A stretch of 64,000 bases of DNA, taken from assembly GCA_964639945.1 (NCBI GenBank), contig CAZXHY010000002.1, forward strand, positions 183-64,182, read 5' to 3'. Every line of letters starts with the position of its first letter. The first letter of the stretch is position 1. The notes beneath the pieces were generated by a model. It was not told where the DNA came from and searched no databases. It was given only the letters and a program-made list of their open reading frames with translations. This document shows positions 519 through 64,000 of this stretch, piece after piece. The DNA comes from an uncultured Gammaproteobacteria bacterium. GTDB lineage: Bacteria; Patescibacteriota; Microgenomatia; UBA10105; UBA927. The position numbers and the translations under genes were made by a program.

Positions 519-645
519 AGTCTATAGCTAAATCCACGTGATTTTACACATATTTTACAGAGCTTGTAAGGATCACCACAAAAAAATCCACACAGTAGCG
601 CGGTATATAAACACACAATAAACAAGAGCAAAACGCCACGTTGTC

Positions 646-2327: not shown

Positions 2328-2387
2328 AAAATGATTATCGCGCTATGTATCTGATGAGTATACCACCGTTTATACACGGAATGGATC

Positions 2388-3302: not shown

Positions 3303-3323
3303 AAAATAGTACGAACTATATGC

Positions 3324-5383: not shown

Positions 5384-5384
5384 A

Positions 5385-6431: not shown

Positions 6432-6506
6432 CTCTAGCCTATTCTACCTTCTTTGATCAATCCGTACGAAGTCCCACATCCCCTAGCCGCCCACTCGGAT
6501 CAATTA

Positions 6507-7502: not shown

Positions 7503-7505
7503 AAT

Positions 7506-8582: not shown

Positions 8583-8585
8583 AAA

Positions 8586-11424: not shown

Positions 11425-11428
11425 AATG

Positions 11429-13667: not shown

Positions 13668-13693
13668 ATGGGAAGAAAAAAACAGAAACTACT

Positions 13694-14407
13694 TCAATAA
13701 ACACGATAAAATCCAACAATCGTTCCATCACAGGATATCGCATATGCACCCTGATTTTGGGAAAGTAGCACAGAAACCATTTGCTTTGGCGTCAGCGTTT
13801 TGGATACCTGATCAAACATAACCGTGTGTTCTCCTGTTGCAGTGCTTACGACAGACAAATTCTGTCCCTGCTTTACTCGAATAAACGGAGGGTTTATTTC
13901 ACAGGTATCGGCTACTGTGATACTTTTTACATTTACTGCCAACGTGTTGATTGCTTCAACAAATACTTTTTTTTCTTCATCTGTGGCTCCCTGCAACGGC
14001 ATACTTATGAAACTTCCTCGCACAACAACAAGCTTCGTGTTTGCTGCTGGGGCAACTGTTGTGTTCTTTTCATTGGTAAATGTTGGCCATTTCCAAACCA
14101 TGGACACTTTTGGCAATGCAATTGTCGGCATCAGGCTTCTTATTTTATCAGTGTTAATGGATATACGAGGCAAGGATGGTAAAATTGGCATATGGGCAGC
14201 GACATATTCACCGCTCAAATTCCCTAAATAAAATACAAATACATATACTATTCCCCATCCCAACCATTTTAAAATTCTGCGCCACATTGGAATACGGGTG
14301 GACACATCAGAAACATTTTTTGATAGAGCGCCTAACCGAGAAATATTATTCTTTCCTACAGCGAGATTAGAACGATTACGCATTTGTTTTTTTATCATAC
14401 ATTTCAC
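13694..14407 (-). CDS. Hypothetical membrane-anchored protein (237 aa)
   Basis: Long ORF with a single TM segment (WLGWGIVYVFVFYLGNL) and a C-terminal extracytoplasmic domain. No recognisable motifs. Confidence 0.6.
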   Translation of the reverse strand: MKCMIKKQMRNRSNLAVGKNNISRLGALSKNVSDVSTRIPMWRRILKWLGWGIVYVFVFYLGNLSGEYVAAHMPILPSLPRISINTDKIRSLMPTIALPKVSMVWKWPTFTNEKNTTVAPAANTKLVVVRGSFISMPLQGATDEEKKVFVEAINTLAVNVKSITVADTCEINPPFIRVKQGQNLSVVSTATGEHTVMFDQVSKTLTPKQMVSVLLSQNQGAYAISCDGTIVGFYRVY

Positions 14408-14442
14408 TCATTTACCACAACTTAATCCATAGTATATCACGA

Positions 14443-15057
14443 CTATTGTATAGTCAATTTTGTAATAATCGAGTGACCAAAATAATCACTTGCTAAAGCA
14501 TCTTTGGGACTATCGAGGCTAGTAATATTTAACTGCCCGTCTCCATTGTCATGGTACAGCGCCACATATAAAGAAGACCCACTGCGAAATGTTGACACAT
14601 CTTTGTATACCATGTGCGCATTGTCGGCTTTCAACTGAATATTGGTGTACACACCCGGAAGCAGCAAACCAGATGCTGCGACAGGGTCTCGCATACCAGA
14701 ATCATACTCTACACCCAAAAATAAAACGAGGTATCCTGACTTCTGTAACATAGCCTTCCCCACCACATACTGATTTCGGTCAAATTCCTTACTTGAGTAT
14801 GTGATATATTCTGACCGAAAAATATGTCTACTTATAAGCTGTCGCCAAGCAAACCATGTGTCGTTTGAGAGAAATAAGAAAAAAAGAAACACTGTTACGA
14901 GCGAAATGGTGCTAGAAATCAAAAAAATGACGAGCCATGACTTGGGCCCATCAGCCTTTAGCTGACTTACACGCTGCTTCTCAGGGGCGACTCCCCCACT
15001 CATGGCTGTTTGAGTGACGGGTGTTATCGGTGATACAACCGGTACAGGTTCAGGCAT
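14443..15057 (-). CDS. Membrane-anchored protein with a Pro/Val-rich N-terminal tail (204 aa); paralog of 15064..15675
   Basis: N-terminus MPEPVPVVSPITPVTQ, one TM helix, and a ~130-aa C-terminal domain. Architecture is shared with the adjacent gene. Confidence 0.6.
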   Translation of the reverse strand: MPEPVPVVSPITPVTQTAMSGGVAPEKQRVSQLKADGPKSWLVIFLISSTISLVTVFLFFLFLSNDTWFAWRQLISRHIFRSEYITYSSKEFDRNQYVVGKAMLQKSGYLVLFLGVEYDSGMRDPVAASGLLLPGVYTNIQLKADNAHMVYKDVSTFRSGSSLYVALYHDNGDGQLNITSLDSPKDALASDYFGHSIITKLTIQ

Positions 15058-15063
15058 ATAGCA

Positions 15064-15675
15064 TTATTTAGTAACTCCAATTACAGTTTTTGCAAAAATT
15101 CTATCTCCATTCTTATCGGTAACAAAAATTGGATTTTTAAATTCACCAGATCCATCAGTATCATATGCGATGGTAACTATGACCTGTGTTTTGGGAGGTA
15201 ACGCTGGTTGATCCGTCGTACCGTCAAGGTTAGTCATCGTAATGTTAGGTATCCGGATAGTTGCGTTTGACACAGTACCTTGGGGTAAATAATCAGAAAC
15301 ACCAAAAACCTCATTGCAGTTTTTATCATTGGGGAAATACACCGCAGAGACGACGATCCATCCAGGCTTTCGAAGTCGTGCTTTGTGCACGATAATATCA
15401 AAATAATCATCTCCCATCACCCCCGCATCAGCCACGATATATTCACGCCCCGTTATATATTGGGCCACAACGCCTTTCCACCAATACCACGGTTCCAAAG
15501 GCATAATGACCAAAATAGTCAAAAGCAAGATAATATTCACTAATCCAGAAACAATCCATGGCGTCAACCATCTCACAGTCACAGGGGGAGTATTTTTTGA
15601 AACAGCGCTAACTGCCGGTGAAGCATTTACCAAAGAAGAAGCAACTGGAACCACAGGAGTAGCGGGCGCGTCCAT
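15064..15675 (-). CDS. Membrane-anchored protein with a Pro/Ala/Val-rich N-terminal tail (203 aa); paralog of 14443..15057
   Basis: N-terminus MDAPATPVVPVASS...PPVTVRW, one TM helix, and a C-terminal beta-rich-looking domain. Confidence 0.6.
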   Translation of the reverse strand: MDAPATPVVPVASSLVNASPAVSAVSKNTPPVTVRWLTPWIVSGLVNIILLLTILVIMPLEPWYWWKGVVAQYITGREYIVADAGVMGDDYFDIIVHKARLRKPGWIVVSAVYFPNDKNCNEVFGVSDYLPQGTVSNATIRIPNITMTNLDGTTDQPALPPKTQVIVTIAYDTDGSGEFKNPIFVTDKNGDRIFAKTVIGVTK

Positions 15676-15758
15676 AGTGGATTCAATCGTACCTTGGTAA
15701 TCGTCGTATTGTCAATTTAGCCATCTACGATTTACACTCGAATTGGCTACGCTTTCCC
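15676..15758. promoter_or_regulatory. Divergent intergenic region. Likely holds promoters for the long minus-strand operon (15675 down to 646) and the plus-strand GT-C gene
   Basis: This is the only non-coding gap of more than 80 nt between divergently oriented gene starts in this part of the window. It contains ttgtca...tacact-like elements, and no hexamers were confidently assigned. Confidence 0.25.
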
Positions 15759-17354
15759 TTGCTCAACGACAACTCTATGAAACAACAAAAAAATACCACC
15801 CTTGTTCATTGGATTTTTTTTATACTTCTTATCTTTAGTATCGGATTTCACTTCTCATTTCTCTCTTCTCTGTACAGATTGGATGATGGAGACACCGCAC
15901 GAGATTATATGGTAGCCAGACATATAGCGCTGTATCAGCAATACCCCACAATAGGACCCAACAATGCTATATACGATTCTGCGCGAGCCAGCCCGCTCTA
16001 CTACTATCTCCTCTCAATCCCAATCCTTATAAATGACAGCATCTACAGTATAGGAGTGCTTAACATTTTATTACAGGCGCTCAGCATCCTCTTTCTTTAT
16101 GCATTAGCGTATATACTTTTTGGACCCACGACAGCGATCCTTACTGCCCTACTACTCTTGTTGAACCAAGAACTTTTCTCTCAATCATTCTATATGATAC
16201 AAGCCCATTTTGGTCATGTTTTTTTTAATGGAAGCTATGCATTTTTAGCATATAGTTACATACGAAAATCACGCATATCGCTCTATATATCTGCGATATT
16301 TTTTTCTTTAGGTTGCATTGTTTCCTTTCATGGTTTTCCGGCGCTGCTCGGATACCTCATTATCATTTATCTTATTTTACGATCACAAAAAGCATCATTA
16401 CAGCGCATCCTTTCTGTGTATGGAACCATGGCATTACTTGTATTATTCTTTTATACACCAACGCTCATAAATATAATCACCTCACGCAACGCATTGTTTC
16501 TAGTGAAAGAACCAGTATATATACAAACACTCAATGACTTCCCAATTCGCGTGATCAGTAATATACGTCTTGCCTTAAACGACTGGATGACATCACTCTG
16601 GCTTCTTCCTCAAATAAAAAATGCGTTGCTTGGGATACTCTGTGTCAGCCTCATACGATTCATGATCTGGGAAAAGACAAAATTAACCCGCATAATCACC
16701 ATTGTTATATTGGCGTATCTTTCCCAAGTTGGATTTTTTGCCGCGCTACTACGCACAGAAACCAACTCTTATCAATACGACGCAATAACGGGACTTGCCG
16801 TGATACTACTCGCATTCTCCGCAGGCTCTACTTGGCCAAAAAATCTTTTTGGTCGCATAGCAAGCATGCTATCAATCATCGGCCTCATGTTCTTGGTCAT
16901 ACCTACACATGGATATATACAATGGCAACAGTTACAAATGTCTCAACCTCAAAAATTAGAATCAAAGCTCGAACCATTGTTTCGCTATATAGATGAACAA
17001 AAAGTCATTCACCCAACCGACTGGAGCAAACGATTTCAAATTGCCATGTATAATGGTCGCGCGAACATGTATCACTGGAAAGAGTCGGTTATTTGGAATG
17101 CACTAGAACATCGATATACCACGCCGTTCGTTCGAGTAGTCAACACTGGCTACAATTACACGCCGCTTGCCACCAGTGAGACTCGGTATATTCTCATATG
17201 TGAAGAATATACATCTCTCCAAGACGCAACAAATCGATGTATCTCTTCATTCATGCAAAAGCGTGAGGATTCAACATACGTAATTCGCGTGATTTCTGAT
17301 AATAGCCCTCATGGATATATCATATATACAGCACAGCACGATCCCGCTAAATGA
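15759..17354 (+). CDS. Polytopic membrane glycosyltransferase, GT-C fold; paralog of 18597..20279
   Basis: 531 aa with about 12 TM helices. The DDGD motif (YRLDDGDTARDYMVARH) follows TM1. Confidence 0.65.
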   Translation: MLNDNSMKQQKNTTLVHWIFFILLIFSIGFHFSFLSSLYRLDDGDTARDYMVARHIALYQQYPTIGPNNAIYDSARASPLYYYLLSIPILINDSIYSIGVLNILLQALSILFLYALAYILFGPTTAILTALLLLLNQELFSQSFYMIQAHFGHVFFNGSYAFLAYSYIRKSRISLYISAIFFSLGCIVSFHGFPALLGYLIIIYLILRSQKASLQRILSVYGTMALLVLFFYTPTLINIITSRNALFLVKEPVYIQTLNDFPIRVISNIRLALNDWMTSLWLLPQIKNALLGILCVSLIRFMIWEKTKLTRIITIVILAYLSQVGFFAALLRTETNSYQYDAITGLAVILLAFSAGSTWPKNLFGRIASMLSIIGLMFLVIPTHGYIQWQQLQMSQPQKLESKLEPLFRYIDEQKVIHPTDWSKRFQIAMYNGRANMYHWKESVIWNALEHRYTTPFVRVVNTGYNYTPLATSETRYILICEEYTSLQDATNRCISSFMQKREDSTYVIRVISDNSPHGYIIYTAQHDPAK

Positions 17355-18588
17355 TTTCTTTTCTCAAAAAGAGAGACTTCCAAAGATATATAAGGCTTCC
17401 TAACGAAATAATCCCTGCCAACACTACTGTGCTATCTATCCCCTGTCTATGTTCTCCAAAAAACGGAATACCGGTAAATCCATAAAACACAACAAGATTT
17501 AAAATATTTATTGAATCTACAACACGAAGAATAAGATAATTTTTTCGCGTTGGATGGAAAAGGTATAGGAGCAACGCGACAATACTTCCAAGTATGAAGT
17601 GATTTTCATGAACACCAAAACTGAATAAGTAATACACGAGTGCCCCAAGCAGACAACTATGTAATAAATCCTCCTCTCGAGTTTTTTTGTGTGCATGTCT
17701 AAACACTTGCCAGCAGACCAACGCATAGCTCATCGAAAAAATGGTTAACTGCACCCAAGCCCAACTTTGTGTCGGTAACGCGTCGGTAGTGGCAACAACT
17801 CGAACAAAAGGTAAATTTTGTATTACCCACGAGATGTTTAACGCGTACGTTGCAGTATGCAACAGCACGTTTCTCAATGAGAGCAATAATCCCGCTCCCA
17901 CATCTTGGGTGAACGGATACAGCGACAAAACTGAGACCACTAATCCACTTATAAACTCAGCCACTCTCATAATTCGACCCTTTGGGTTTGGCCCAGAAAA
18001 CACATATGTCAACATGATCGGAAGCAATATGATAGGCTGCCACTTTACAAGACAGCTTAAGCCAAACAAATATCCGCTCCAAAAAAGTCTTTTTTTCACC
18101 AAAAACAAAACGCTTAATACCAAAAAAGGAAAAGCTAAAATATCAGTATATGCCAGCCCTTGCGTGCTCAAAACCAGAGAAAACATACTCAAATACAAAA
18201 CAGTATTCTGCCAAATTGTTCGCTTTGCATCCCCCACAGAACGACTAAACCATGAAACAGCAATCAACGTAATGATATAAAACAACAAAATCAAAAGCTT
18301 CATGGAAATGAGAGTTCCAATGACTTGTACAGGAAATACTAATGAAAAAAGATAAAAAATAAGCGCATGTCCAAGAGGAAACTTGGTAAGAATCATGTTG
18401 CTTGGACAAAGATAATTGAGGCAATCAGGAATAAACGAATTCCCACGAATCAAAATGTCTTGAAAAATTACTTCCCAATTTCTCGCATCTACGGTTCCAC
18501 GAGAGGAAAAGAGAGCTATATGTATAGCAATCACCACAAGCACAATCGCCCACATTCCAAATCTCTGTATTGTTGTGTGTAATCTCAT
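17347..18588 (-). CDS. Polytopic integral membrane protein (413 aa), GT-C/DUF2029-like mannosyltransferase suspected
   Basis: About 10 TM helices and an acidic motif after TM1 (VDARNWEV). Overlaps the 3' end of 15759..17354 by 8 nt in convergent orientation. Confidence 0.5.
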   Translation of the reverse strand: MRLHTTIQRFGMWAIVLVVIAIHIALFSSRGTVDARNWEVIFQDILIRGNSFIPDCLNYLCPSNMILTKFPLGHALIFYLFSLVFPVQVIGTLISMKLLILLFYIITLIAVSWFSRSVGDAKRTIWQNTVLYLSMFSLVLSTQGLAYTDILAFPFLVLSVLFLVKKRLFWSGYLFGLSCLVKWQPIILLPIMLTYVFSGPNPKGRIMRVAEFISGLVVSVLSLYPFTQDVGAGLLLSLRNVLLHTATYALNISWVIQNLPFVRVVATTDALPTQSWAWVQLTIFSMSYALVCWQVFRHAHKKTREEDLLHSCLLGALVYYLFSFGVHENHFILGSIVALLLYLFHPTRKNYLILRVVDSINILNLVVFYGFTGIPFFGEHRQGIDSTVVLAGIISLGSLIYLWKSLFLRKEII

Positions 18589-18596
18589 ATACCTGA

Positions 18597-20279
18597 TTGT
18601 TTCCTAGCATTAGAATACTTCCTATCTACCACAAAAAGAAGCTGATACAATACAATATTCATACCTTGATCTGTTGTATGCATTCTTCTCCCAAAAAAAC
18701 ACTTCAAATTTGGCACCACCCGTATTTTTTCCATGGAGTATTTATATTTTTTCTCTTCTTAGGATTTGTGATTCGATATGCTTTATTCTATCAAAACTTT
18801 AATATTGAAGACGGTGATATAACAAGCGTATACCATATTGCCAATCACATCATTACCTACCATGAACTTCCGATAATTGGTGAACCAAATAGTATATACA
18901 CACTTCTCCCACATAGTCCGCTCTACTTTTACCTCACTGCGCTAGGACTTTTGATTCACAATAGTATTTTTACACTTGGTGTTATGGGCATGCTACTTCA
19001 ATTTGTGTATATCGTATTACTATATGCATTGGCTTTCGTGCTGTTTAATAAATCTGTCGCGCTACTTACTGGTCTTATACTCGTAGGAAATCAGCAATTT
19101 ATTGCGCAAACACATGTCATGTATCAACGATGGTTTGAACAACCCTTTTTTGCTGCGAGCTATCTATTTCTCGCACTTGCATACACCAAAAAAAATTACG
19201 CATACACGCTCTATGCCGCGATATGCTTTACCATCGCATTGGGAATAGGCCTACATGGATATGCTGCGCTTCCGGTTTTTCTTTTTCTTATAGGTATTAC
19301 CCTACACAAAACACAAGCTTCACTGCGTAAATATATAACCGTTGGGATTATTATGATTGGAATTTGGTCATTATGCTATGCAACTGTGCTTGGATATTTA
19401 ACCAAAAACAATCATTTATTTTTTGCGTTTCAAGAATCTGTATACACCACCTCTATCACAGGCTATCTACGAGAGTTTATTTTAAACATTGGGCGCCTGT
19501 TTTACGGCACACTATATAGCGATCTGCTTCCTCCCATCATTCAAGGAGGGAGCATACTTCTTTTTTTGAGCATTGTTGGTATCGCTGCACTTAGAAAGAA
19601 ACTGCACTACTCACCATACCTTCTTAGTATCATTACCTACATTTTTTCGATCATTCTCATTGCATCATTTCTTCAAAAAGACACCAGAGACTATCACTTT
19701 GTCGCGGCCTTTGGTCCGTTTATCATTCTCCTCTCTGCACTCACACAATCATTTGTACAAAAAGCAAAATCAGATAAAATAAACACTATCATTTGCACAA
19801 TGCTTCTTTTGATCATTGGCGCACCTTCCACAAGATTTTTGCAACAAAATCAACAAAAACAAGATATATATATCGCGCAACTAAACGCAGCGAAATCAAC
19901 AACCCCATACATACAACAACTTCGACAAGAAAACGCGTCTTGGCCAAACCAAACAAGTATTGAGTTATATGGGAATACAATTATCGGTCCATACGACCCA
20001 ACAGATAACATATTTTGGCCCATTTTTGAGAAAATAGCGTACACCAAACTTTCACAAACAACCTCGGGAATAACCACCCCACTCACCCGTACTCCAGACA
20101 ATATTTTTGTCATATGTTCGGACTATAAATCAGTACAGCACGCTGAAGAACGCTGCAATAAAGCCTTTCTCACACGGCATCCAAACTTTGAATCAACTCT
20201 GATTTATACAGGAGACTCAGATGGGAAATATATCCTCTACATAGGGAAACGAAAAAAAGCTCCGACATCGACACAATAG
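18597..20279 (+). CDS. Polytopic membrane glycosyltransferase, GT-C fold (probable true start at MHSSPKK, nt 18678)
   Basis: The EDGD motif (FNIEDGDITSVYHIANH) aligns with the DDGD of 15759..17354. Both also share a C-terminal soluble domain ending in CxxxF..R. Confidence 0.65.
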   Translation: MFPSIRILPIYHKKKLIQYNIHTLICCMHSSPKKTLQIWHHPYFFHGVFIFFLFLGFVIRYALFYQNFNIEDGDITSVYHIANHIITYHELPIIGEPNSIYTLLPHSPLYFYLTALGLLIHNSIFTLGVMGMLLQFVYIVLLYALAFVLFNKSVALLTGLILVGNQQFIAQTHVMYQRWFEQPFFAASYLFLALAYTKKNYAYTLYAAICFTIALGIGLHGYAALPVFLFLIGITLHKTQASLRKYITVGIIMIGIWSLCYATVLGYLTKNNHLFFAFQESVYTTSITGYLREFILNIGRLFYGTLYSDLLPPIIQGGSILLFLSIVGIAALRKKLHYSPYLLSIITYIFSIILIASFLQKDTRDYHFVAAFGPFIILLSALTQSFVQKAKSDKINTIICTMLLLIIGAPSTRFLQQNQQKQDIYIAQLNAAKSTTPYIQQLRQENASWPNQTSIELYGNTIIGPYDPTDNIFWPIFEKIAYTKLSQTTSGITTPLTRTPDNIFVICSDYKSVQHAEERCNKAFLTRHPNFESTLIYTGDSDGKYILYIGKRKKAPTSTQ

Positions 20280-20303
20280 GTTTTACAAAAGGAAGGCGCC
20301 GAC

Positions 20304-21761
20304 CTAGCGAAGCTGAAACAAAACCATCTCCCCTTCTCTATCAAATTCTTGTAATTTTCCACGTACCCCCATGTTCATAATGGCACTTGCATATGCATCA
20401 AATGGGACTTGGTCATGAAACGATCGATTAGATGGCCACCGCACAAATAAAAATTGTGCATGTTCTCCAGTATCTAGCCACCAACAAGGAGTGTTGCACT
20501 GCGGAATATCAGTACGCGAAATCAATTCAGCGACATATATATATTTTCTATGAGAAATATGAGGTACCAAATTAGGCTGTGCGCTAAGTCGCATCTCGGA
20601 AGGTATTCGCTTGATAAAAATATCAGCATCTCTCATCCACTGCTCTTGTATCCAATATCGCTGAGTAAAAACTTCGTACAGAGGAAATCTATATCCAATA
20701 ATTATTCCAACATTAAGGAGTATCAACAGCCCAATAATCACGTCAATTCGTATCTGTATTTTTTTAAACCATTCAAGAGTTTGGAATAATCCAAGCAATA
20801 ATAATGGCGCAAGTACAATACGATGATGAGTAAACGGCTTATCTTTAAAATACGCAGCTGGCCCAGTATTGAAATACTGGGCCATATCCACAACCACCGC
20901 CATAACTGATCCCAAAGAAAATAATGGCAAAAATCCAAATGATATATAGCTATACCACCACGATGACAGTTTATCGTGATTATCAAACAACAATCGAATA
21001 TTTTCCACAGGACTCAATGAGATAACTGGAGTGTATTCATATCCAATAGGCGAAAATCTACCGACGATATACATGGATATGCCGGTAGCAAACACCCCAA
21101 ACGGAATAAACCACCATGCTCTTGCTCGGAATCGATTATCAAAAACATACACGAGTCCCAAACAGGAAAGAGCGATACCCATGTTTTCTTGTGTACCCAA
21201 CAACAAAATCAGGGAAATAACGAAGAAGACTGTCCTTTTAGCCTCAAAAAAATATGCAGTCCACAATAAAAATACCACGCCAATCACTACAGGATGAAAA
21301 TCAGAAAATATCGATTGTTGTATACCAAAAAATACACTGTATATCATCGCAACGCCTAAGGATTGCCAAGAAGAAAGCATTCGTAACCTTGCAAGCTTAT
21401 ACACTGGAATAATCGAAACGCAAATAACCACCGCCTGAAATATAAGTAATGCCCGAACATCATTCCAAATCCAATACAGGGGTGATAAAAGCGGCAATGT
21501 AAGGGTCAAGTGATCACCGAATATATGCCTGCGATACACGGTATTATACATGCCATAAAATCGAGAGTATAACCAAATTGCCTGATCGTATTGGCCCAGA
21601 TCCATTCCTCTTGGAGCGAATCGTCTATATTCACCTAGCGAAATACATGTATAAACCACAGAGAGAATTACTCCCCAAATACCCAATATTTTTAAAGCGA
21701 TATTCTCAGATATATTCGCTCTTGTTTTTTTCACCGACGAGTCGTATTTTTTACTAAACAT
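20304..21761 (-). CDS. Polytopic membrane protein (485 aa), GT-C-like (DUF2079-type) glycosyltransferase suspected
   Basis: About 12 TM helices. First-loop motif MDLGQYDQAIWLYSRF. Lies immediately downstream of a DegT-GT2 pair. Confidence 0.5.
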   Translation of the reverse strand: MFSKKYDSSVKKTRANISENIALKILGIWGVILSVVYTCISLGEYRRFAPRGMDLGQYDQAIWLYSRFYGMYNTVYRRHIFGDHLTLTLPLLSPLYWIWNDVRALLIFQAVVICVSIIPVYKLARLRMLSSWQSLGVAMIYSVFFGIQQSIFSDFHPVVIGVVFLLWTAYFFEAKRTVFFVISLILLLGTQENMGIALSCLGLVYVFDNRFRARAWWFIPFGVFATGISMYIVGRFSPIGYEYTPVISLSPVENIRLLFDNHDKLSSWWYSYISFGFLPLFSLGSVMAVVVDMAQYFNTGPAAYFKDKPFTHHRIVLAPLLLLGLFQTLEWFKKIQIRIDVIIGLLILLNVGIIIGYRFPLYEVFTQRYWIQEQWMRDADIFIKRIPSEMRLSAQPNLVPHISHRKYIYVAELISRTDIPQCNTPCWWLDTGEHAQFLFVRWPSNRSFHDQVPFDAYASAIMNMGVRGKLQEFDREGEMVLFQLR

Positions 21762-54447: not shown

Positions 54448-57400
54448 CTAATGAATCAAGACGAAATACTTCTCTTGATCTACGTATTTAAAAATACCTT
54501 CCCATGTCTCGTAATCAAGTGGCTGAGATGATGTTTGAAACGCATTTAACCCGTTTAGGTTCGCCATCCAATCATTTATTGGGTCTTTTATACCAATTTC
54601 AGAATCGATCCCTTGTGTAATCAATTGATCTTCTAATTGATCTTTCAAACTCACAGACCACAACATCTCAGGTGGAATGAGAATTTGCACCGCTTGACCA
54701 GTCTCGTTAGCACCCACAAGCCCCATATACATAAGCTTATTTGTTCCACCATATTGATTTGACCTCATAAAGTTTTTTGCCATAGACTCAGTGAGATTTG
54801 TATTTCCTTTATAGGAATACCCCACAAACGACGTGGTGTAATCGAACGGCCACAAGATACGCATAGCGTTCTCGTATTCACTTATTCCCTGATTTGGCGT
54901 TGTCATAAACCGCACCTCACCATTTTCTTCAACTAGCCACGGTGTTACCACTTGGCTATGTATCTGAGTTAGGAAATCAGGTTGCGCAACTCCATTTAGT
55001 TTGTTTAATTGGGCATCAGGAATATTGGTAGCGAGATATTGTATATACACAGGGTCATTTAATGATTTCCCCATTCGCGCGTAGGCAGCTAGTACTGCAT
55101 CCCAATCAGAAAAATCAACAATTGCGCCCTGTTCGATAGGATCTATAATTATCGCAGGAAGAATCTCTCCATCTTTCTCCAAATGAAGAAATGCAATTAA
55201 CTCTGGATCAGACGTAAAATACAGCAATCGTCCGTCCTCATCTTTACGAATTTCCCACTCAACATCACCTACTACAAACGAATAATGCATATTGTAATCC
55301 CATTTTCCTTGTAGCTGTTTACATGCTTCATCTCCTTGCATCAAGGCAGTGAGCGCTTCTTTGGCCATTTGTGGATTCACATCACCGCGATCTATATCAT
55401 GAAATGCAGCATATATTACTGGTTTACATGCCTCAGAGACATATTCATTCATAAGCTCTTTACCTAACACCGCAATCCATCGAGTATTCCAGTCACCCAA
55501 TACTAATTGAGATATCGCCACGTACAACAATGCCCTATCGACCCGAATACATTTTGGAAATTTACACCCTTCAGGACCCGCCCCCTTCTTCGACATCACA
55601 AACCGAACACCCGTGCGACGCGTTATTTCCTTTTGTATTCCTTCTCGAAAACTCACGTTATCTCGAATCTCCCTAGCAAGCGCATTGCGCGACATAAAAA
55701 TAGGTGCGCATGTAGGATCCCCACCCATTGCGTAGACCTTTTTAACAAATGGATTGAAAGAAAAACATCCATCATTTTTTATACTTTGAATTACAATCTG
55801 TATACCTGTGTGATTAGCCTCATTTTTTGTAGCTGAGGAAATAACTGGACGATTTCTTTGTAAGAGAATCTCAAATATATTCTCATCCGACGCATATCGA
55901 CTCGTCCACAAGTCTACCACCTCGTGGTATACGCTTTTCCAGATAAAAGAACTTAAGGTTTGTGCAAATTGACAGATACCACTCACACGATTTTGACCAC
56001 TAAGACTTTGGGCGTAAACTTTGGTAACAAAACCAACACTTCCTCCATCACACACTGCGCCTGTAACCCTATCTATAACCGATTTCGCCACTTCCTCTAA
56101 TTTATTTTCGGGTATTTCCTGCTCTCCTAGAGACTGTAGCAAGCTGTGTTCTTCTACATCCTGTGGTTTAAAAAACTCTGGATGACTCACGCGAATATCA
56201 GAAAGCTTACCCACAACGTGGACTCCCAATTGATCATTAGGAGTCAGATCCACAACGGTTGCATCAGAAAATCCATGCACACTCATGTAATACATAAGCA
56301 TCTGTATCCCCTGAGTTGTACCTCCGACGGTCCATATATTGTTTGTTCCATGAATAATTTTAGCGCTCGTCATAGGCTCAACGAGCCCAGATTTTTGCAG
56401 AAGCACGTTATGCGCATTGGTTTCTTTAGTCCAGAGCAACCTGCCGTCGTTCGTAATAATTCCAATAAATTGTTGACCTGAAACCCCTGCATACCGAACC
56501 TCAGTCACAGCAGCGTTCATGTAGGATAACTTTTGTTTTAGATCTAACGTCGTGTATGAAATTTCAGGTGTGGGTAAACCAAAACTATAGACCCCAGCTT
56601 TCAAATCGTCATTAAGGGTTTTACGATCAATAACAAACCGTGTTCCTTCATTTCTAACAAACACTAAACGACTTGCTGATACGGCACCTACTAACAAATC
56701 CTCGTCACCAATATCTAAATGTTGGATAAAAGTATCACCTACCAAATAGACAAAATCGTCCGAAGTTCCTGCTAGTTCGCCGAGCGTTGTGTTGGTTATC
56801 TTTTGGTTTGATCCTATACCCAATTCCAGCCGGACAATGGTTCCTGCTTCAAATTCCAAACGTATGAGCCGAGTAGCCAACTCTTGGGTATTCGTAAACG
56901 ATTCATCAGGAATGCTAACAGTGAGGCCTTCTCGAGAATTAAACAGATAAATATTCCCACGTATTTCATGCTGAGGTTGAGTAGATGTAAATTTTATTGG
57001 GTAGGAGAGGAATACCTGTGGAATTTGGGCGTACGGATTGACAATATCGTCTAACTTCCCCGCTGCTACATCAGCAAGTGTCAAATTTTCTTGTCGTTCA
57101 CGATCTCGGAAAGAGAATCTCCAATTAGGATAAGCTCCCTCTTGGAGAAGCACGCGAACAGCATAATCTGCCAGCGTGCGTCGCATTTTTGGTGTCATCC
57201 GCCCGTTATCCACTCTATCAATACCAAGCTCGCCCCTATCCACTATAACGGCTATATAATCACTCTCATTACCTCCTATAGAATTCACGATCGTTTGATG
57301 AGCCGTATTGAATGTCCTACCCAAAATAACGCCTTGGGTAGAATCATGCATATTGATTACTGCTCGAAATGTAGAAATAGGATCCTGCAGGAAATCTCGA

Positions 57401-60400
57401 GACGCAGCTCCCAGAATCACCCGCAGCAACTCACCCTGTGTCGTTCCATCTGCATTGATAAGATGATAGAGTGTCACAAATGCTTCCGCATTATCAGCAA
57501 AAATTCTATTTGACAGAGCTCTGGAGATTTCAGGTCTTTGTGCAACAAGATCAGTAATTTTTGGGTGATTTAACAAAGCAAATACATTTTCTGTTAAGTC
57601 TTCATGCTGAAGCATGAAGGATATAAGCGCCTGTTTATTATCATCATTCAACCACTCTGGTTTGTCTGTTTTTGCAATGTAGCTTTTTAAAATACTAACA
57701 ACTCTACCTCTGTTGATAAGTCCGGATTTAATAACTTGTGCAATTTGAGTACGGGCCATAACTGGTATATCAGAGTGGAAGATAACGGAAACAAGATCAG
57801 TTCCGAGATATGAGCCCAAAACCTCTTCAATAAGCGAAGGTTTTTGATGGTGTGTTCTGATAACCCTCTCTGCTACGGTTTGTCTTTTTTCCGATTCGAC
57901 CGTTTCGTCAAGTAAAAATGCGCGCACAGAACGAACAGGTTTAGACGAAATGGAAAAACTTTTAAAGTCGCTCTGGCTCATATCCTGCCAAAGGACAATA
58001 GCTGCACCCATACGGTTATCAGCATTATTGGTCGCATCAGACACAAAGGAACCTAAAATGTCATAAATGATAAGATAAAATTTTGGAATATATTTTCGGG
58101 ATAACACATTAATCATTTCATGCTCCAACTCCTCACTTTTTATACGTATGAAAATTTCATTAAGGAGCTCTCGCATGCCCTGCTGGCTAATATTATGAAC
58201 CCCAACAGATTCAAAATATTTCATCGTTTCAACAGGAAACTGACGAATATGTTGCTTCATTAGTTCAATAACTCGTACATCTGGATTCTTTATATTTGAC
58301 CAAAGTGATTGCACCAATGAACCATTTTCTACGTTAGTGATCCTAAGGGACGCAATTTTTTGAATAAATTGAAACGAAGCATCGTTTGGATTTTTGTAAA
58401 AATCTAAAAGCAAAATAAGCGCGTTGGTTCTAACTTCGACATCCACCTGATCATTAAACACAAGATCTGTATAGAGCTCTACAACATCATTATTAAGATG
58501 CTTTTCCCAAGAATTCATAAGTCGTAGTCGTATCGTTTCATTTACTTTTTTATTTTCTAAAATTTGTCGAGCGATAGTAACGGCTTGAGGATCACTCGGA
58601 TCCATAGACCAAACTTGTTCATAAAAAGCTGTCGTAGGACCCAAGGTTTCAAAAAAATCATCAGGTATAGTCTCTTCTCCTGCCAGTGGTTTTACTTCTG
58701 ATCTATTTTTAAGCAATAAGGGCCAAAGTGCTATCGGTTGATCTTTCAAAAAAGCATAAAATACACGGTCAATTTCTGGCCATTGTGCACTGTAGGCATC
58801 AAAGTATGAACGTGCATATTGCTTTGCATCGGGAAGATTATTTATTGCAAGGACAAAAGGTACAAACTCCGGCTGGAAATTTATATAATTCTCAAAATCT
58901 AATCGCAACACTGTGTCAGTAAAACGGCTCAGTGTGTGTATTGGCGGCAAAAAATCTGGCCTCAGAGACAGGAGGAATAGCTCTTGCTGATCGTCAGCTT
59001 GGTTCAGTATCATATTCCAAAACGCCTTTTCTCCTTCTGGAACGAGACCTGATGTAACAAACGCAGGGTCATGAAGCACTTCGTAATATATTGATTTTTT
59101 CCATTCATCCGGATGTTGCGCGTAATACACAAAAGTCGGATTCTTCTCATTAAACATTGGGAAAAATAACGTCGCAAAAAACGCAGAAGTGAAGTTCTGA
59201 CCGTTGTACGTGGGGTGAGCATTTATGTCTTTAAAAACTTGCGTTACGTTTAAAATAGTTTGTATACGAACCCCACCTACTAACGCGTCGCTTACGAATT
59301 GATTCAACCCTTTATCCTCTGACGATGCTGCCTTTAATAACTCATGAATCCTGTACAAATCAAATTTTGTTATACGTTCACCACCTCTAACTCGTTGAAG
59401 TATTTGTTCCCAAGGAAGAAGCTTGAAATGTTCTTCTTCTATACTGAATTGAAAATGCTCTAAGTTGACTTCCTCTTGCCTATACAAAAATCCCTCCTCA
59501 TGCGATTCGTCTGTGAGAAGCATATACACTTCTGCCTCAACTGGATAAATTTTGTAGAATTCCCAAAGCTTTTGTATATCCCCAACAGGAGAAGATGTGT
59601 CACGAATAAACCCTTGTCGTGCGGCCACTTTTTTAGCAAAAGGCCCCACTAATGCCATAAATGCATCAAGATCTTTTTTTAATTCGGGATTCTGGATAAA
59701 AATTTCATTATAAAATGAAGCGGTTATGCTAACTTGCGGTCGACCCTCACGAATATTTCTAAAAAATTGCTCAATCACATATTCTCGTTCGATCTGACTT
59801 CCGTTATATAATGCGCCGTAGTCAAATGCTTGATCGTAGACTTTATCTGGTACTCCATATCCTGGGGTTCCATCAGGTCGATCATAAAATTCTGGAGTTA
59901 TACTGAATGTCTTTGGAGCTAATGCGAAAACTTTCGCATTCTTCTCTAAAGGTTTCGTCGAACCATAGACAACATAGTGCTGGGCTTTATCTAGCAACCC
60001 TAAATACTCATAAAAATTATTGTATGCTCGCAACGATCCCCCAGTTATATATACCTCACTCAAAACCGAAATTGATTCACTATTTTCTAAATCAGCTAAA
60101 ACCTCGGGATAATAATATTGCATCAATGCCTTTCGGAGCGCCCCATCTACCACAGGTTCGGATGGTGCCAGAAGTCGCTGTAAATTCAACAGATCTTGAT
60201 TTGTAGGATCAGTTTCCAGCTTAAGCGCCACCTGATCTCTTGTTGTGTCTATCCATATTTCTGGTATCCCTTTGTATGCAATGGTGTTTGGTCCGATAAT
60301 ACCTTTTGGACCCTTTGTTGGCATAAGAACAAATTTTGGCATATTTGCCTCAGAAATACCAAGAATTTTACCAATGATTATTATCACTGCTTTCTGACGC

Positions 60401-63400
60401 ACACCACTATCCCCCGTCAAAATAATCGTCTGTGGACGCGACTGCAAAATGGCAGTAACTGCGCGTAAAAATGGCTCACCAGTCTCTGTTAATTGCGGCG
60501 TTATCGATACCTTGGTTTGATCTATAACTACACCACTCGACTCTTCTGAAGAATTCGCAGGATTCAATGAAAAATCAGTCGGCACTATCCCCAATCCCCC
60601 TTTATTCATCAAGAAATTCAAAATCCGATCTTGTAGAGATTTAGGCAACCAATCAAAGAATCTTCGCCATGCTACCTGCCACCAAGACGACCCGCCTATA
60701 GTTGATGGGGCTATAGTTGCATTTCTTGACGGCAACCATGCCCCAATTTGTGGCAAGATGTTAGGGTCGCTCATACCTCTATATAATAAAGACTGAATTG
60801 CTTGTAACTGAGCCACGGTCATTATCGTTTTCACATCTGGCAACACACCCAACGCCCAAGATTGTGCCTCAAGCTGAGAGAGAGCTCCAGTGGTATGCGT
60901 ATTTTCATCTAATATTTTTTGAATTTCTTCTACCATCCATGGATTTCGACGCAGTACCTCAGTAAGCCGAGATGAGTCTTGTATGTGTTCCGTGAATGAT
61001 TTGTTCGCTTGCTTTTGAGCATAGTAATCATTAAAAACTTGCGACCACGCATCAACTAACTGCTGTCTACGTGTGGATTGCTCCGCTGTCCGCTGCGCAA
61101 CCTCTGCTTGAAACCAATTATCGTTGGCACCTAAGGTGGTGCCAATTGTGTTTACAAAACGTTCAGTAAGTAGGGATAAATCCACTGCGTTCCCTTGCAC
61201 GCGGTTCATCAACAATGTAGCCAACAATCGCTCTACAAATTCCTCTGACTCCTTGCTCTCATATTCGTTTACAATCTCCTGCGCCATCTTTGTAACATCG
61301 GTATTTGGCTTGAGATAACTACGTAAAACTCCTGCAACATCAGTAACCGTCGGAGCACTTGCTTGATGAAGCGCCATAAGAATGTGTATAGCAATTATCT
61401 CTTCTATCCCAGTTTTGGTGCCCGTAGCATCGTTGGTGAGAGCACCATCCCCACCCAAGTCTGTTCGATATCGAAACTCAGCATCAACCGTCAAATCCTG
61501 TGATATTGCATAATTACCAAGTGACACAAGTGTTTTTGCTAACGCAAAATCCTCGTTTCGAGCAAAATGAGGTACGCCTCCTGCCAACCTCATACCAGCA
61601 ACTGTCGTAACAATTTGTGGCGACCCAATAGTAAGATTTCCCCCTGCGCGATTCGTAAAAATATTTTGTAGCATGTCATACACGGGATACAAATTTCGAT
61701 GAATAAGAAAATCATGAAAATTTGATGCAATAGCTTTAGAGCTTTCCGCAAAATGTTCGCTCATACCTAGGATAAGCGTCTGAAGTGAGGGTGAAGCATC
61801 ATATTGTGAAATAATGCCACTGATATACGATGTTGGAACCAACACGTCTGCATCCATCTGCGCAACTATACCTCTGTCCCCCCTTCCATTTTGAGCAAAT
61901 CTTCTCGCTGCCTCTCGAGATCCCACATCCCGCAACATTCCAAGATTTACACGCCTTTTACCATCTCTGCCATCCACATCATCAGGAACCCCTCGATAAT
62001 CTATCGTGTGTATGACTAATCCTTTGGCAAAAACCTTCTCGAGCACACTTCGTTGATATGACGTAAGACCTCTACCAGTTTGGGCAACTATACGTTTTTC
62101 AAAATCGTCAAACGCTATATGCCCCGCAAGATATTCAGCAAGTACCATGGTTTGTGCATTATCTTTTTCTATATCTGTACCTTTTGCCGACTCACCATGA
62201 TTGAGCAATAGCAACAATTCAAACCGAGAAGCATCAGCGCTTTGATTGGCAAAGCTTTCGAGGAACCGATAAATAGCATTGGTATCATATTCCTTCGCCA
62301 CAGGCACGACTACAGATATGCGAGCTTCTGGAGCCATAGGTTTTGAAATAATGCGCCTATTTGATAACGTATACGTCGTAATACGGTCTTTGATTCGCAT
62401 ACGAATTGATGGCCCTTTCTGAAGAGTTCCTGTGCTTTGATTCGAAGTGCCATTGTCAGAAAAGTTGAGTGGTACTATCCCCAACCCACCCCTATTCATC
62501 AAGAAGTTCAAAATCCTATCTTGCAAAGATTTAGGCAACCAATCAAAAAATCCTCGCCATACCCGCTGCCACCATGATGGCGCGGTATTAGTTTTTTGAT
62601 TGTCAGCAAGCAATTCAATTTTATGCCGTATCACCTCTGCTTTGTATCGATTCCCATCAGGAGTCACAAAATCCACAGTCCCGTCTGAAAGAAAATCTAA
62701 ACCTCCAGGAACTTTAAACTGATTCGGAACTTGATCTAGAAGCAATTCGTCTGCAGCAGAATCATCAACTTCGATAAGATCCTTAACTTCTTTTGGAAGT
62801 CGTATTTCTAACAATACTGGTGTTTTATCAAAGCCATTACTATCTGCGACACTTCTTACTGAATTTAACTCTACTGCATATCGCCCTGCAGATACTTCGG
62901 GCTCCTGCGAAAGATACATATACTCATCACCATCGGTTCGACCCCCAACAGTGTTTGCCTTTACAACACCTTCTACTGTTCCATGCCACAATGACAATGT
63001 CTTCGCCTGATCGAGCGCAATCTGCTCAGCCTCTTGAGAAATCTCTGCATTCTTTTTCCCTTTAATATCAACTTTACGTACTATATTTGGTTTACTCACG
63101 CCAACCACACGCCACCCATTTCCTTGTATACTTTGCACAGTTGTTTGAGGCTGAGAAATGGCAGGATCCAACACCCCAACAAGACTTTTGACCGTTTCTG
63201 TCCTATACGCAACACCTTCTATATCGATCAAATATATTTGATCTCCATCATCAGCCCAGTTGTCATATTTCATTCCGTCTTTTGTTATGAGACTTCCCCA
63301 TATCGCTTGGTCTGCAAAATCAGGATCTGCCTGTTTAGCATTTATATTAAACGTCGGAAAAAGCCTGCGCATCGGCTCATTTAATGCCTCAAGAGAAATA

Positions 63401-63924
63401 CGAGAATCAGGTTTTTTCAGTGATGCTGTTTGTTGTAAGAATGGCATTATTGCACCTATACTGTACTCCCCATTATCCATTTCGTAGTAAAACCATGTGG
63501 TATCGGGATGAAAAAATCCTTTTTGAGTGAGAAGCACCATAAGCCTCAACTGATTGATAGCTTCCTCCTCTAATTTAAAGTGGAAGGTGTTTGTTTTTTC
63601 TTGGTACACACGATCGCCTGACAATCTAAACACACGCCCTCGATCAGAATGTATTTCTATACCACTCTGCGCATACGCATCTCGCTCTGCCTTAGTTAGC
63701 TTTGGAATAGATACGCCGTATAATACCAGAGCATTTTCCTCTAAATTGCTCGACTGACCTCCATTATTGTTTAGATTCATCAATCTCGCCAAATTTGGGT
63801 CGACAATACGAGAAACCTGCTGATCTCCCCACCATTTTTTAGCTATACTCCAAGCTTTTTGTATAGGTGCAATCTGAATAAAACTCGTACTGGCTATCAT
63901 TCCAACAATAAACAAGGCTAGCAA
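54448..63924 (-). CDS. Giant (3158 aa) N-terminally membrane-anchored protein with an internal duplicated segment and an embedded GT-A-like motif pair
   Basis: A single 9.5-kb ORF with no stop and an N-terminal TM (MLALFIVGMIASTSFI). The duplicated block reads SWWQ(R/V)(V/A)WR(G/R)FFDWLPKSLQDRILNFLMN(R/K)GGLGIVP. It also carries RISVVVPVAKEYD ... QMDADVLVP. Confidence 0.8.
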   Translation of the reverse strand: MLALFIVGMIASTSFIQIAPIQKAWSIAKKWWGDQQVSRIVDPNLARLMNLNNNGGQSSNLEENALVLYGVSIPKLTKAERDAYAQSGIEIHSDRGRVFRLSGDRVYQEKTNTFHFKLEEEAINQLRLMVLLTQKGFFHPDTTWFYYEMDNGEYSIGAIMPFLQQTASLKKPDSRISLEALNEPMRRLFPTFNINAKQADPDFADQAIWGSLITKDGMKYDNWADDGDQIYLIDIEGVAYRTETVKSLVGVLDPAISQPQTTVQSIQGNGWRVVGVSKPNIVRKVDIKGKKNAEISQEAEQIALDQAKTLSLWHGTVEGVVKANTVGGRTDGDEYMYLSQEPEVSAGRYAVELNSVRSVADSNGFDKTPVLLEIRLPKEVKDLIEVDDSAADELLLDQVPNQFKVPGGLDFLSDGTVDFVTPDGNRYKAEVIRHKIELLADNQKTNTAPSWWQRVWRGFFDWLPKSLQDRILNFLMNRGGLGIVPLNFSDNGTSNQSTGTLQKGPSIRMRIKDRITTYTLSNRRIISKPMAPEARISVVVPVAKEYDTNAIYRFLESFANQSADASRFELLLLLNHGESAKGTDIEKDNAQTMVLAEYLAGHIAFDDFEKRIVAQTGRGLTSYQRSVLEKVFAKGLVIHTIDYRGVPDDVDGRDGKRRVNLGMLRDVGSREAARRFAQNGRGDRGIVAQMDADVLVPTSYISGIISQYDASPSLQTLILGMSEHFAESSKAIASNFHDFLIHRNLYPVYDMLQNIFTNRAGGNLTIGSPQIVTTVAGMRLAGGVPHFARNEDFALAKTLVSLGNYAISQDLTVDAEFRYRTDLGGDGALTNDATGTKTGIEEIIAIHILMALHQASAPTVTDVAGVLRSYLKPNTDVTKMAQEIVNEYESKESEEFVERLLATLLMNRVQGNAVDLSLLTERFVNTIGTTLGANDNWFQAEVAQRTAEQSTRRQQLVDAWSQVFNDYYAQKQANKSFTEHIQDSSRLTEVLRRNPWMVEEIQKILDENTHTTGALSQLEAQSWALGVLPDVKTIMTVAQLQAIQSLLYRGMSDPNILPQIGAWLPSRNATIAPSTIGGSSWWQVAWRRFFDWLPKSLQDRILNFLMNKGGLGIVPTDFSLNPANSSEESSGVVIDQTKVSITPQLTETGEPFLRAVTAILQSRPQTIILTGDSGVRQKAVIIIIGKILGISEANMPKFVLMPTKGPKGIIGPNTIAYKGIPEIWIDTTRDQVALKLETDPTNQDLLNLQRLLAPSEPVVDGALRKALMQYYYPEVLADLENSESISVLSEVYITGGSLRAYNNFYEYLGLLDKAQHYVVYGSTKPLEKNAKVFALAPKTFSITPEFYDRPDGTPGYGVPDKVYDQAFDYGALYNGSQIEREYVIEQFFRNIREGRPQVSITASFYNEIFIQNPELKKDLDAFMALVGPFAKKVAARQGFIRDTSSPVGDIQKLWEFYKIYPVEAEVYMLLTDESHEEGFLYRQEEVNLEHFQFSIEEEHFKLLPWEQILQRVRGGERITKFDLYRIHELLKAASSEDKGLNQFVSDALVGGVRIQTILNVTQVFKDINAHPTYNGQNFTSAFFATLFFPMFNEKNPTFVYYAQHPDEWKKSIYYEVLHDPAFVTSGLVPEGEKAFWNMILNQADDQQELFLLSLRPDFLPPIHTLSRFTDTVLRLDFENYINFQPEFVPFVLAINNLPDAKQYARSYFDAYSAQWPEIDRVFYAFLKDQPIALWPLLLKNRSEVKPLAGEETIPDDFFETLGPTTAFYEQVWSMDPSDPQAVTIARQILENKKVNETIRLRLMNSWEKHLNNDVVELYTDLVFNDQVDVEVRTNALILLLDFYKNPNDASFQFIQKIASLRITNVENGSLVQSLWSNIKNPDVRVIELMKQHIRQFPVETMKYFESVGVHNISQQGMRELLNEIFIRIKSEELEHEMINVLSRKYIPKFYLIIYDILGSFVSDATNNADNRMGAAIVLWQDMSQSDFKSFSISSKPVRSVRAFLLDETVESEKRQTVAERVIRTHHQKPSLIEEVLGSYLGTDLVSVIFHSDIPVMARTQIAQVIKSGLINRGRVVSILKSYIAKTDKPEWLNDDNKQALISFMLQHEDLTENVFALLNHPKITDLVAQRPEISRALSNRIFADNAEAFVTLYHLINADGTTQGELLRVILGAASRDFLQDPISTFRAVINMHDSTQGVILGRTFNTAHQTIVNSIGGNESDYIAVIVDRGELGIDRVDNGRMTPKMRRTLADYAVRVLLQEGAYPNWRFSFRDRERQENLTLADVAAGKLDDIVNPYAQIPQVFLSYPIKFTSTQPQHEIRGNIYLFNSREGLTVSIPDESFTNTQELATRLIRLEFEAGTIVRLELGIGSNQKITNTTLGELAGTSDDFVYLVGDTFIQHLDIGDEDLLVGAVSASRLVFVRNEGTRFVIDRKTLNDDLKAGVYSFGLPTPEISYTTLDLKQKLSYMNAAVTEVRYAGVSGQQFIGIITNDGRLLWTKETNAHNVLLQKSGLVEPMTSAKIIHGTNNIWTVGGTTQGIQMLMYYMSVHGFSDATVVDLTPNDQLGVHVVGKLSDIRVSHPEFFKPQDVEEHSLLQSLGEQEIPENKLEEVAKSVIDRVTGAVCDGGSVGFVTKVYAQSLSGQNRVSGICQFAQTLSSFIWKSVYHEVVDLWTSRYASDENIFEILLQRNRPVISSATKNEANHTGIQIVIQSIKNDGCFSFNPFVKKVYAMGGDPTCAPIFMSRNALAREIRDNVSFREGIQKEITRRTGVRFVMSKKGAGPEGCKFPKCIRVDRALLYVAISQLVLGDWNTRWIAVLGKELMNEYVSEACKPVIYAAFHDIDRGDVNPQMAKEALTALMQGDEACKQLQGKWDYNMHYSFVVGDVEWEIRKDEDGRLLYFTSDPELIAFLHLEKDGEILPAIIIDPIEQGAIVDFSDWDAVLAAYARMGKSLNDPVYIQYLATNIPDAQLNKLNGVAQPDFLTQIHSQVVTPWLVEENGEVRFMTTPNQGISEYENAMRILWPFDYTTSFVGYSYKGNTNLTESMAKNFMRSNQYGGTNKLMYMGLVGANETGQAVQILIPPEMLWSVSLKDQLEDQLITQGIDSEIGIKDPINDWMANLNGLNAFQTSSQPLDYETWEGIFKYVDQEKYFVLIH
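60581..60690. repeat. Copy A of a ~110-nt intragenic direct repeat (about 85% identical to copy B)
   Basis: ggcactatccccaatccccc...ttcatcaagaaattcaaaatccgatcttgtagagatttaggcaaccaatcaaagaatcttcgccat, compared with 62471..62580. Confidence 0.85.
62471..62580. repeat. Copy B of the intragenic direct repeat
   Basis: ggtactatccccaacccacc...ttcatcaagaagttcaaaatcctatcttgcaaagatttaggcaaccaatcaaaaaatcctcgccat. Confidence 0.85.
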
Positions 63925-64000
63925 TCCTGTTTTTAAACCCTTTCCTAATTGCGTTAACCATCGCCATAGCGCTTCAAATGACCAACCACGAGATTTTAAT

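Follow-up and report, generated by a model that had tools for sequence, protein, structure and literature searches.

A Trp-rich peptide repeated on both sides of a predicted GT-A glycosyltransferase domain in a giant Woesebacteria-like protein: a possible pair of membrane anchors

The stretch of DNA analyzed here (the window, 64,000 nucleotides of contig CAZXHY010000002.1, from a Woesebacteria-like bacterium of the candidate phyla radiation, CPR, or Patescibacteria) carries a giant open reading frame (ORF) on its minus strand, and a segment of approximately 110 nucleotides (nt) occurs twice within this ORF. The two copies, designated A and B, encode nearly the same Trp- and Phe-rich peptide and lie on either side of a predicted glycosyltransferase (GT) domain. 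A sequence-only reading had described the repeat as direct, about 85% identical and 1.9 kb apart, and this held: 92 of 110 nt (84%) were identical between 60581-60690 and 62471-62580, the core on the minus strand (62470-62577 versus 60580-60687) matched at 91 of 108 nt, and the starts of the copies were 1890 nt apart, equal to 630 codons in a common frame. The order along the protein was domain X, copy A, a linker, the GT-A domain, a helical extension, copy B, a second linker and the rest of the protein, as follows.

54448..64000, minus strand: giant ORF, at least 3183 codons visible, frame open to the window edge
63862..64000, minus strand: hydrophobic, transmembrane-like segment (LLALFIVGMIASTSFIQIA) at which the Kyte-Doolittle score of the protein peaks, following a Trp-rich amphipathic stretch (GWSFEALWRWLTQL)
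62578..63768, minus strand: domain X upstream of copy A, residues 53-449, not in the Woesebacteria relative compared below
62470..62577, minus strand: motif copy A, residues 450-485 (ORF numbering from 63924), peptide SWWQRVWRGFFDWLPKSLQDRILNFLMNRGGLGIVP
62359..62469, minus strand: Ser/Asn/Thr-rich linker after copy A, residues 486-522, its first six residues (LNFSDN) faintly continuing the repeat
61465..62358, minus strand: predicted divergent GT-A (GT2-like) glycosyltransferase domain between the copies, residues ~523-820
60814..61464, minus strand: helical extension of the GT module, residues ~821-1037, through which the best homologue (P0001) aligns
60580..60687, minus strand: motif copy B, residues 1080-1115, peptide SWWQVAWRRFFDWLPKSLQDRILNFLMNKGGLGIVP
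60526..60579, minus strand: Ser/Asn-rich linker after copy B, residues 1116-1133 (TDFSLNPANSSEESSGVV), homology to the relative starting immediately after it

The peptides encoded by A and B were identical at 32 of 36 residues and each was followed by a Ser/Asn-rich stretch, in agreement with what had been reported. Two of the differences in copy B relative to copy A (R454V and G458R) shift one arginine, and the net charge of +3 was kept; faint similarity ran six residues further (P-x-x-F-S-x-N). Random in-frame pairs of 108 nt drawn from the same gene were on average 27% identical (sd 4.4%, maximum 43.5%, approximately 5000 pairs), and a degenerate back-translated pattern of the motif occurred at two sites in the window where none was expected. 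Self-BLAST of the protein, in place of the self dot-plot that had been proposed as a check, recovered the pair at E = 3e-22 as the sole significant internal repeat. The likeness of A and B is far beyond chance.

No third copy of the motif was present in any frame of the window, and no further DNA copy of the repeat was present in the window or the fetched loci. Within the protein, the best Smith-Waterman score for a third copy was 34, and shuffled sequences averaged 31 (P ~0.2). Searches by hidden Markov model (HMM) and jackhmmer in the giant proteins of the window and of the Woesebacteria relative recovered no copy besides A and B. Two motif-like, Trp-rich amphipathic segments fell below threshold in the shuffle and HMM tests and were rejected: one at residues ~2658-2697 (window 55834-55953; FIWKSVYHEVVDLW..., SSFIWKSVYHEVVDLWTSRYASDENIFEILLQRN), just upstream of the last block shared with the relative, and one in the relative at residues ~5477-5512 (FWWQTVRRF...PSLVD; FWWQTVRRFQLYGPSLVDWRRWFLGF). 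Directly upstream of copy B, the stretch 60688-60717 (TIAPS-TIGGS; ACTATAGCCCCATCA / ACTATAGGCGGGTCG) resembled a diverged 15-nt tandem micro-duplication; only ...TAPS was found at the equivalent place upstream of copy A.

The silent sites of the two copies pointed to an old duplication. The proportion of synonymous differences (pS) was 0.54 by the Nei-Gojobori method, with a synonymous divergence (dS) of ~0.96, a nonsynonymous divergence (dN) of 0.06 and a dN/dS of ~0.06, an estimate that rests on 22 synonymous sites only. The 32 shared residues and the codon usage of the gene would by themselves give 75.6 identical nt of 96, compared with 86 observed; over 108 nt, ~75% identity was expected from protein constraint alone and 84% was observed. 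The in-register flanks of A and B were 13-47% identical per 30-nt window, with an average near the 27% background. Near-identity at synonymous sites reaching into the flanks, the signature of a recent duplication or conversion, was thus not observed between A and B. For comparison, the best conserved orthologous block of the window protein and its Woesebacteria relative (block 2 below) had a dS of 0.57, a dN of 0.097 and a dN/dS of 0.17, and at silent sites A and B appear at least as old as the split of these two genomes. Identical codons at degenerate positions were in modest excess (18 of 27 versus 10.8 expected, P ~0.001) and the longest exact run was 21 nt; the surplus is consistent with unsaturated common ancestry or with an old, short conversion tract. 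With synonymous sites this heavily diverged, the pair is an old duplicate, and only four changed residues at a dS of ~1 indicate strong purifying selection on the peptide. A and B thus stem from an old intragenic duplication in which purifying selection, and not a recent exchange of DNA, has held the peptides alike; of the recent intragenic duplication or gene conversion proposed earlier, the duplication stands, and its recency and the conversion are poorly supported. No Rfam family matched over the repeats, and their RNA fold z-scores were unremarkable (+0.87 and -1.6).

Each motif copy comprises a Trp- and Phe-rich amphipathic helix (SWWQRVWRGFFDWL in copy A), a proline kink (PKS), a second and moderately amphipathic helix (LQDRILNFLMNR in copy A) and then a hydrophobic tail rich in Gly (GGLGIVP). 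Four Trp and two Phe, together with Val/Ala and Leu, form the hydrophobic face of helix 1, which spans ~180 degrees; the polar face bears Arg, Gln, Ser and Asp. The hydrophobic moment of helix 1 was in the 99.5th-99.9th percentile of the protein. Its Wimley-White interfacial energy was -6.6 (A) and -6.4 (B) kcal/mol per 14 residues against a protein mean of +2.9, and the two helices ranked first and second among all 14-residue windows of the protein. With a HeliQuest-type D factor of 1.2-1.46 and the net charge of +3 in both copies, the motif had the amphipathic aromatic face, cationic polar face and favorable interfacial energy of an in-plane amphipathic anchor. The earlier proposal of an amphipathic membrane-interacting or interaction module is accordingly borne out in its computed amphipathicity and interface propensity; the membrane binding itself is a prediction. 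Single-sequence AlphaFold2 (AF2) gave a low-confidence helix-break-helix for both copies (predicted local distance difference test, pLDDT, ~30-40 there); the single-sequence model of residues 434-1133 was set aside (pLDDT 35). Low-complexity linkers flanked each copy on both sides, a setting typical of a small autonomous module and not of part of a globular domain. An internal translation start after the motif was also considered, as copy B carries a Shine-Dalgarno-like AAAGGGGGA followed by an in-frame GTG; the corresponding codon of copy A is GTA, and the idea was dropped.

The domain between the copies is a divergent GT-A/GT2-like glycosyltransferase, judged both from its modeled fold and from its DxD motif. 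Its first strand (ISVVVPV) begins at residue 536 and is followed by an acidic residue (ISVVVPVAKE), and the DxD motif, D691-A-D693 at 61846-61854, showed little or no variation across the family alignment. An exhaustive phmmer search with residues 434-1133 returned 176 representative clusters at E<=1e-3; among the best 150 of these, the best-matched stretch lay between the motifs (query residues 50-604). Several of the homologues weakly matched Glycos_transf_2 (Pfam PF00535), whereas the window protein itself was below detection for that family. The family profile weakly matched GT2 structures, GtrB (5EKP) among them, across the first strand and the DxD motif. AF2 modeling of the GT domain on a 19-sequence alignment reached a pLDDT of 74 and a predicted template modeling score (pTM) of 0.73, and the top Foldseek matches of this model in the PDB were all GT-A/GT2 proteins, including AvpGT, K4CP, TarS/TarP, BcsA and the hyaluronan (HAS) and chitin synthases (E from 3e-9, probability 1.00). 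No homologue of domain X was found. As a family, the GT domain plus extension (60814-62358) was barely detectable by Pfam, and among the best 150 homologues the module also occurred inside very large proteins (e.g., 4267, 3049, 2878 and 2216 residues), some of which carry signal peptides and several transmembrane segments.

The rest of the window was a ~50 kb envelope-glycosylation island that included many short GT2 enzymes, GT-C membrane enzymes (PMT_2, GT87, YfhO, DUF2079), DegT aminotransferases, a sugar C-methyltransferase and an NPCBM domain. At 1035-13667 on the minus strand, approximately 10 consecutive ORFs of 304-430 residues formed a series of diverged paralogues with 20-32% mutual identity (E down to 1e-60); all of them had an N-terminal hydrophobic anchor and none a Pfam match.

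Searches for the motif elsewhere, which the sequence-only reading had called for, returned no homologue in any protein or contig collection covered. Over the whole protein, Pfam gave 0 families at E<=1 and NCBIfam gave one chance match away from the motif, and no curated family (Pfam-A, NCBIfam) covered residues 450-485 or 1080-1115. A whole-protein word-index search found no motif homologue; alignment of the motif against 5.8 billion protein clusters produced no candidate with three common 5-mers; and the motif was absent from the GTDB genomes, the viral contigs and the best 150 of the 176 GT-module homologues. Sequence searches of segments of the protein against the PDB gave no match, four further segments yielding none at E<=1, and exact-sequence look-ups of the giant protein from two candidate starts found neither on record. 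Because no homologue was detectable in any collection searched, the motif does not appear to belong to a known family. Three pattern-driven matches in JGI metagenome contigs were rejected as chance (a polytopic membrane protein, an integrase-like ORF and an unrelated fragment). The first of these, at 9200-10534 of Ga0335072_10000581, contains the exact nonapeptide WRGFFDWLP with WW eight residues upstream; the peptide directly follows a hydrophobic helix of an otherwise unrelated protein. Chance or convergence, picked out by the search pattern, probably explains the match, but its position suits an interfacial role for such a sequence.

We propose tentatively, with a probability of roughly 0.35, that the motif pair serves as in-plane membrane anchors. 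Each copy would lie flat in the membrane interface, and the pair would hold the GT-A cassette by both of its ends at the membrane surface, the location of the lipid-linked glycan intermediates on which the surrounding envelope-glycosylation genes act. The two copies represent a small autonomous peptide module within a giant mosaic protein of a CPR bacterium. Interfacial membrane binding is, at the same level of confidence, the most economical mechanism given the physicochemical predictions, the membrane-centered glycosylation context and the habit of GT2 enzymes; membrane-associated members such as GtrB use amphipathic interface helices. The transmembrane-like segment near the start of the visible protein also points in this direction. 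In-plane amphipathic anchors include the Trp-rich N-terminal helix of hepatitis C virus (HCV) NS5A, the membrane-targeting sequence of MinD and the juxtamembrane helices of GtrB (interface helices in PDB 5EKP). The motif shares with them a cationic amphipathic helix with a Trp/Phe face of ~180 degrees and a favorable predicted interfacial energy, and it adjoins a GT-A catalytic domain. It differs in being internal instead of terminal, in forming a near-identical pair that brackets a domain, and in continuing into a second helix with a Gly-rich tail; its sequence is not homologous to any of theirs, its polar face is unusually conserved, and its membrane binding is predicted only.

Several findings weigh against this interpretation. 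All of its support is physicochemical prediction, and the motif has no homologue from which a function could be transferred. The residues of the polar face are as conserved as the hydrophobic ones, which exceeds the usual need of generic lipid binding and favors a specific partner. Because the N-terminus lies outside the window, the visible part does not fix the membrane topology of the protein. The best 150 of the 176 GT-module homologues lack the motif, and the Woesebacteria relative lacks both the motif and the cassette.

Specific docking or self-pairing was considered as a possible but rather doubtful alternative. Here the helix-kink-helix units would bind a common protein partner, or A and B would form a four-helix bundle that closes the ends of the cassette, so that the cassette becomes an inserted loop domain. 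Conservation of polar and hydrophobic positions alike (32 of 36 at a dS of ~1) is the pattern expected of a specific binding site common to both copies, and the amphipathicity of both helices, the isolation of the module in flexible linkers and the symmetric position around one cassette are consistent with it. However, no partner was identified, a cationic face so rich in Trp is more characteristic of lipid binding at the interface, the AF2 model of the motif was of low confidence, and there were no homologues from which covariation could be read.

The comparison with the relative bears on another explanation. A whole-protein GTDB scan returned a single relative, a 6907-residue ORF (41..20764) of Candidatus Woesebacteria bacterium Gw_Eff_bin_148 (JAGOLU010000003.1; L010), and this assigns the window to the CPR/Patescibacteria. 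The two proteins were homologous in three abruptly bounded blocks only, with 77-84% nt identity.

63769..63861, minus strand: short conserved island, residues 22-52 (QKAWSIAKKWWGDQQVSRIVDPNLARLMNLN), L010 residues 3321-3351
63770-63840, minus strand: block 1, residues 29-52 versus L010 residues 3328-3351 (L010 10022-10092), 79% nt identity
59740-60526, minus strand: block 2, residues 1134-1396 versus L010 residues 4020-4282 (L010 12097-12883), 84% nt identity
54721-55770, minus strand: block 3, residues 2719-3069 versus L010 residues 6557-6907 (L010 19709-20760), 77.5% nt identity

The segments between blocks were unrelated and differed in length (1081 versus 668 residues; ~1320 versus ~2270 residues). 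Residues 53-1133, which run from domain X through copy A and the GT cassette to copy B, were swapped in the relative for an unrelated 668 residues, and homology restarted 18 residues past copy B. The L010 protein contains neither the GT cassette nor, at the shared junction or elsewhere, the motif; it carries other enzyme domains (GNAT and alpha/beta-hydrolase-like). The recombinational length variation suggested earlier found no direct evidence: the relative shows wholesale replacement of the region with no motif remaining, and from a simple deletion between A and B a hybrid motif would be expected, which is not seen.

The gene in which the repeat lies had been given as 54448-63924. The repeat is indeed inside this ORF, and the gene is larger, since its frame continues as far as position 64000, the edge of the window. 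The TTG start at 63924 falls inside the hydrophobic, transmembrane-like segment and there is no in-frame stop up to the edge, so the 5' end of the gene probably lies beyond the window. At the other end of the gene, contig k141_932464 of ERZ27247828 was near-identical to the window (1 mismatch in 4641 nt) and departed at window position 54596, 149 nt inside the 3' end; its last 115 nt (4642-4756) were unrelated and contained stop codons. The departure reflects either a strain in which most of the giant gene is missing or replaced, or an artefact of assembly at the contig end.

From this mosaic it could be argued that the motif is a cassette junction: a peptide or DNA segment that bounds swappable enzyme cassettes and serves as a handle for homologous recombination, with its duplication a by-product of cassette insertion or accumulation. 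The three abrupt blocks, the wholesale replacement of residues 53-1133 and the restart of homology so close to copy B fit this idea. The left boundary of the replaced region is another short conserved island, weakly motif-like, and a repeat of the relative's own brackets a segment bearing its GNAT domain. We nevertheless regard the explanation as unlikely. At the shared junction the motif is missing from the relative, so it was not a common handle for that exchange; the dN/dS of ~0.06 indicates selection on the peptide and not on the DNA; the longest exact run is only 21 nt; and a single relative was available for comparison. The nearest known systems are the VENN motif of CdiA, the PxxxxDPxGL motif of Rhs proteins and the linkers between MARTX effectors. 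As in these, a short conserved peptide lies beside a conserved/variable boundary of a very large modular protein whose cassettes differ between relatives. Here, in contrast, the motif lies on both sides of the cassette and not only upstream of a C-terminal toxin, the relative lacks it at the shared junction where a demarcation motif would be expected, and no immunity gene, autoprotease or secretion system was identified.

The island reads KKWWGDQQV-x-RI-x-DPNLARL-x-NLN, is 24-31 residues long and is conserved in both genomes, with unrelated sequence on both flanks. In L010 it reads SRWQRVWNAVKKWWGDQQV... from residue 3318, and the start of this stretch, SRWQRVW, is almost the start of motif copy A. 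Shuffling with copy A only gave P ~0.05 for the whole relative and 0.007 for the block alone; this support is marginal and homology of island and motif is not claimed. The repeat of L010 (residues 5205-5244 versus 6544-6582; 55% identity over 40 residues, E 1e-9; G-x-x-AL-x-NTGCFS-x-N...VYA) brackets a ~1300-residue segment and its second copy opens the conserved C-terminal block, an arrangement analogous to the A/B pair.

Proteolytic processing, in which a giant polyprotein would be cut at the motifs (e.g., around N-[RK]-G-G / L-G-I-V-P) and the GT cassette freed, seems more improbable still. The near-identical sequences stand in exposed linkers on either side of a catalytic cassette, as paired cleavage sites would, and a preprint on other giant bacterial proteins proposes that they are cleaved by peptidase domains of their own (bioRxiv 10.1101/2023.11.21.568195). 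However, no peptidase domain was found in the protein or in the neighboring genes scanned, and the 36 conserved residues far exceed the length of a cleavage site. The leader consensus of double-glycine (C39) peptidases, with hydrophobic residues at -4, -7, -12 and -15 before GG, was not fitted on inspection, as -4 is Asn and -12 is Asp, and no peptidase family was among the window ORFs scanned.

Rickettsia palindromic elements are short selfish repeats inserted in frame into genes, and the repeat resembles them as a ~110-nt in-frame segment coding a helical, surface-type peptide within a gene; it departs from them in having two copies in one gene (64 kb examined), no palindrome, and conservation at the level of the protein. 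That the repeat is a selfish element of this kind, or a recent duplication or conversion, with no function of its own has in its favor the excess of identical codons and the 21-nt exact run, and is very improbable and already largely refuted by the diverged silent sites (pS 0.54, dS ~1) at a dN/dS of ~0.06, the restriction to two copies in one gene and one frame with no other in the window or the fetched loci, the lack of a palindrome or RNA structure signal, and the lack of any match in viral contigs.

Giant proteins have been described in other ultra-small bacteria, including the giant genes of Omnitrophota (bioRxiv 10.1101/2023.11.21.568195) and the giant proteins of Vampirococcus (PMC8080830). 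The likeness lies in the CPR-type host, the very long ORF, the divergent or unannotatable domains, the carbohydrate-active modules and the transmembrane-like anchor. The proteins considered here are smaller (at least 3.2k residues; 6.9k in the relative), and neither a SecA-like nor a peptidase domain was detected. Among the passages of the Omnitrophota preprint (bioRxiv 10.1101/2023.11.21.568195) that a term search returned, there was none on a paired orphan motif around a GT-A cassette.

As a kind, the motif varies known themes, namely a short amphipathic anchor or docking peptide doubled around a catalytic domain of a giant modular protein. The feature is real but only modestly unusual, and present evidence makes it an orphan motif of a single lineage whose role is predicted. 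Cassette-level mosaicism appears to be the more interesting lead, with a single comparison behind it. One could speculate, and we consider it a long shot, that giant genes of CPR (Woesebacteria-like) bacteria are built like polymorphic effector arrays, in which cassettes (the GT-A domain here; the GNAT and alpha/beta-hydrolase-like domains of the relative) are exchanged between lineages and orphan peptide modules delimit them and double as membrane or partner docking units. Such modules may include the Trp-rich helix-kink-helix pair, the KKWWGDQQV...NLARL island and the GCFSFNP repeat of the relative. If this were true, the repeat would be the visible footprint of a grammar of cassette shuffling not yet described for CPR bacteria. 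The motif is a cheap experimental target, since a 36-residue peptide suffices for studying membrane or partner binding, and it would give a concrete handle on the organization of one unannotatable giant protein of the ultra-small CPR bacteria. If more relatives show the same junction logic, this would indicate modular cassette exchange in CPR giant genes.

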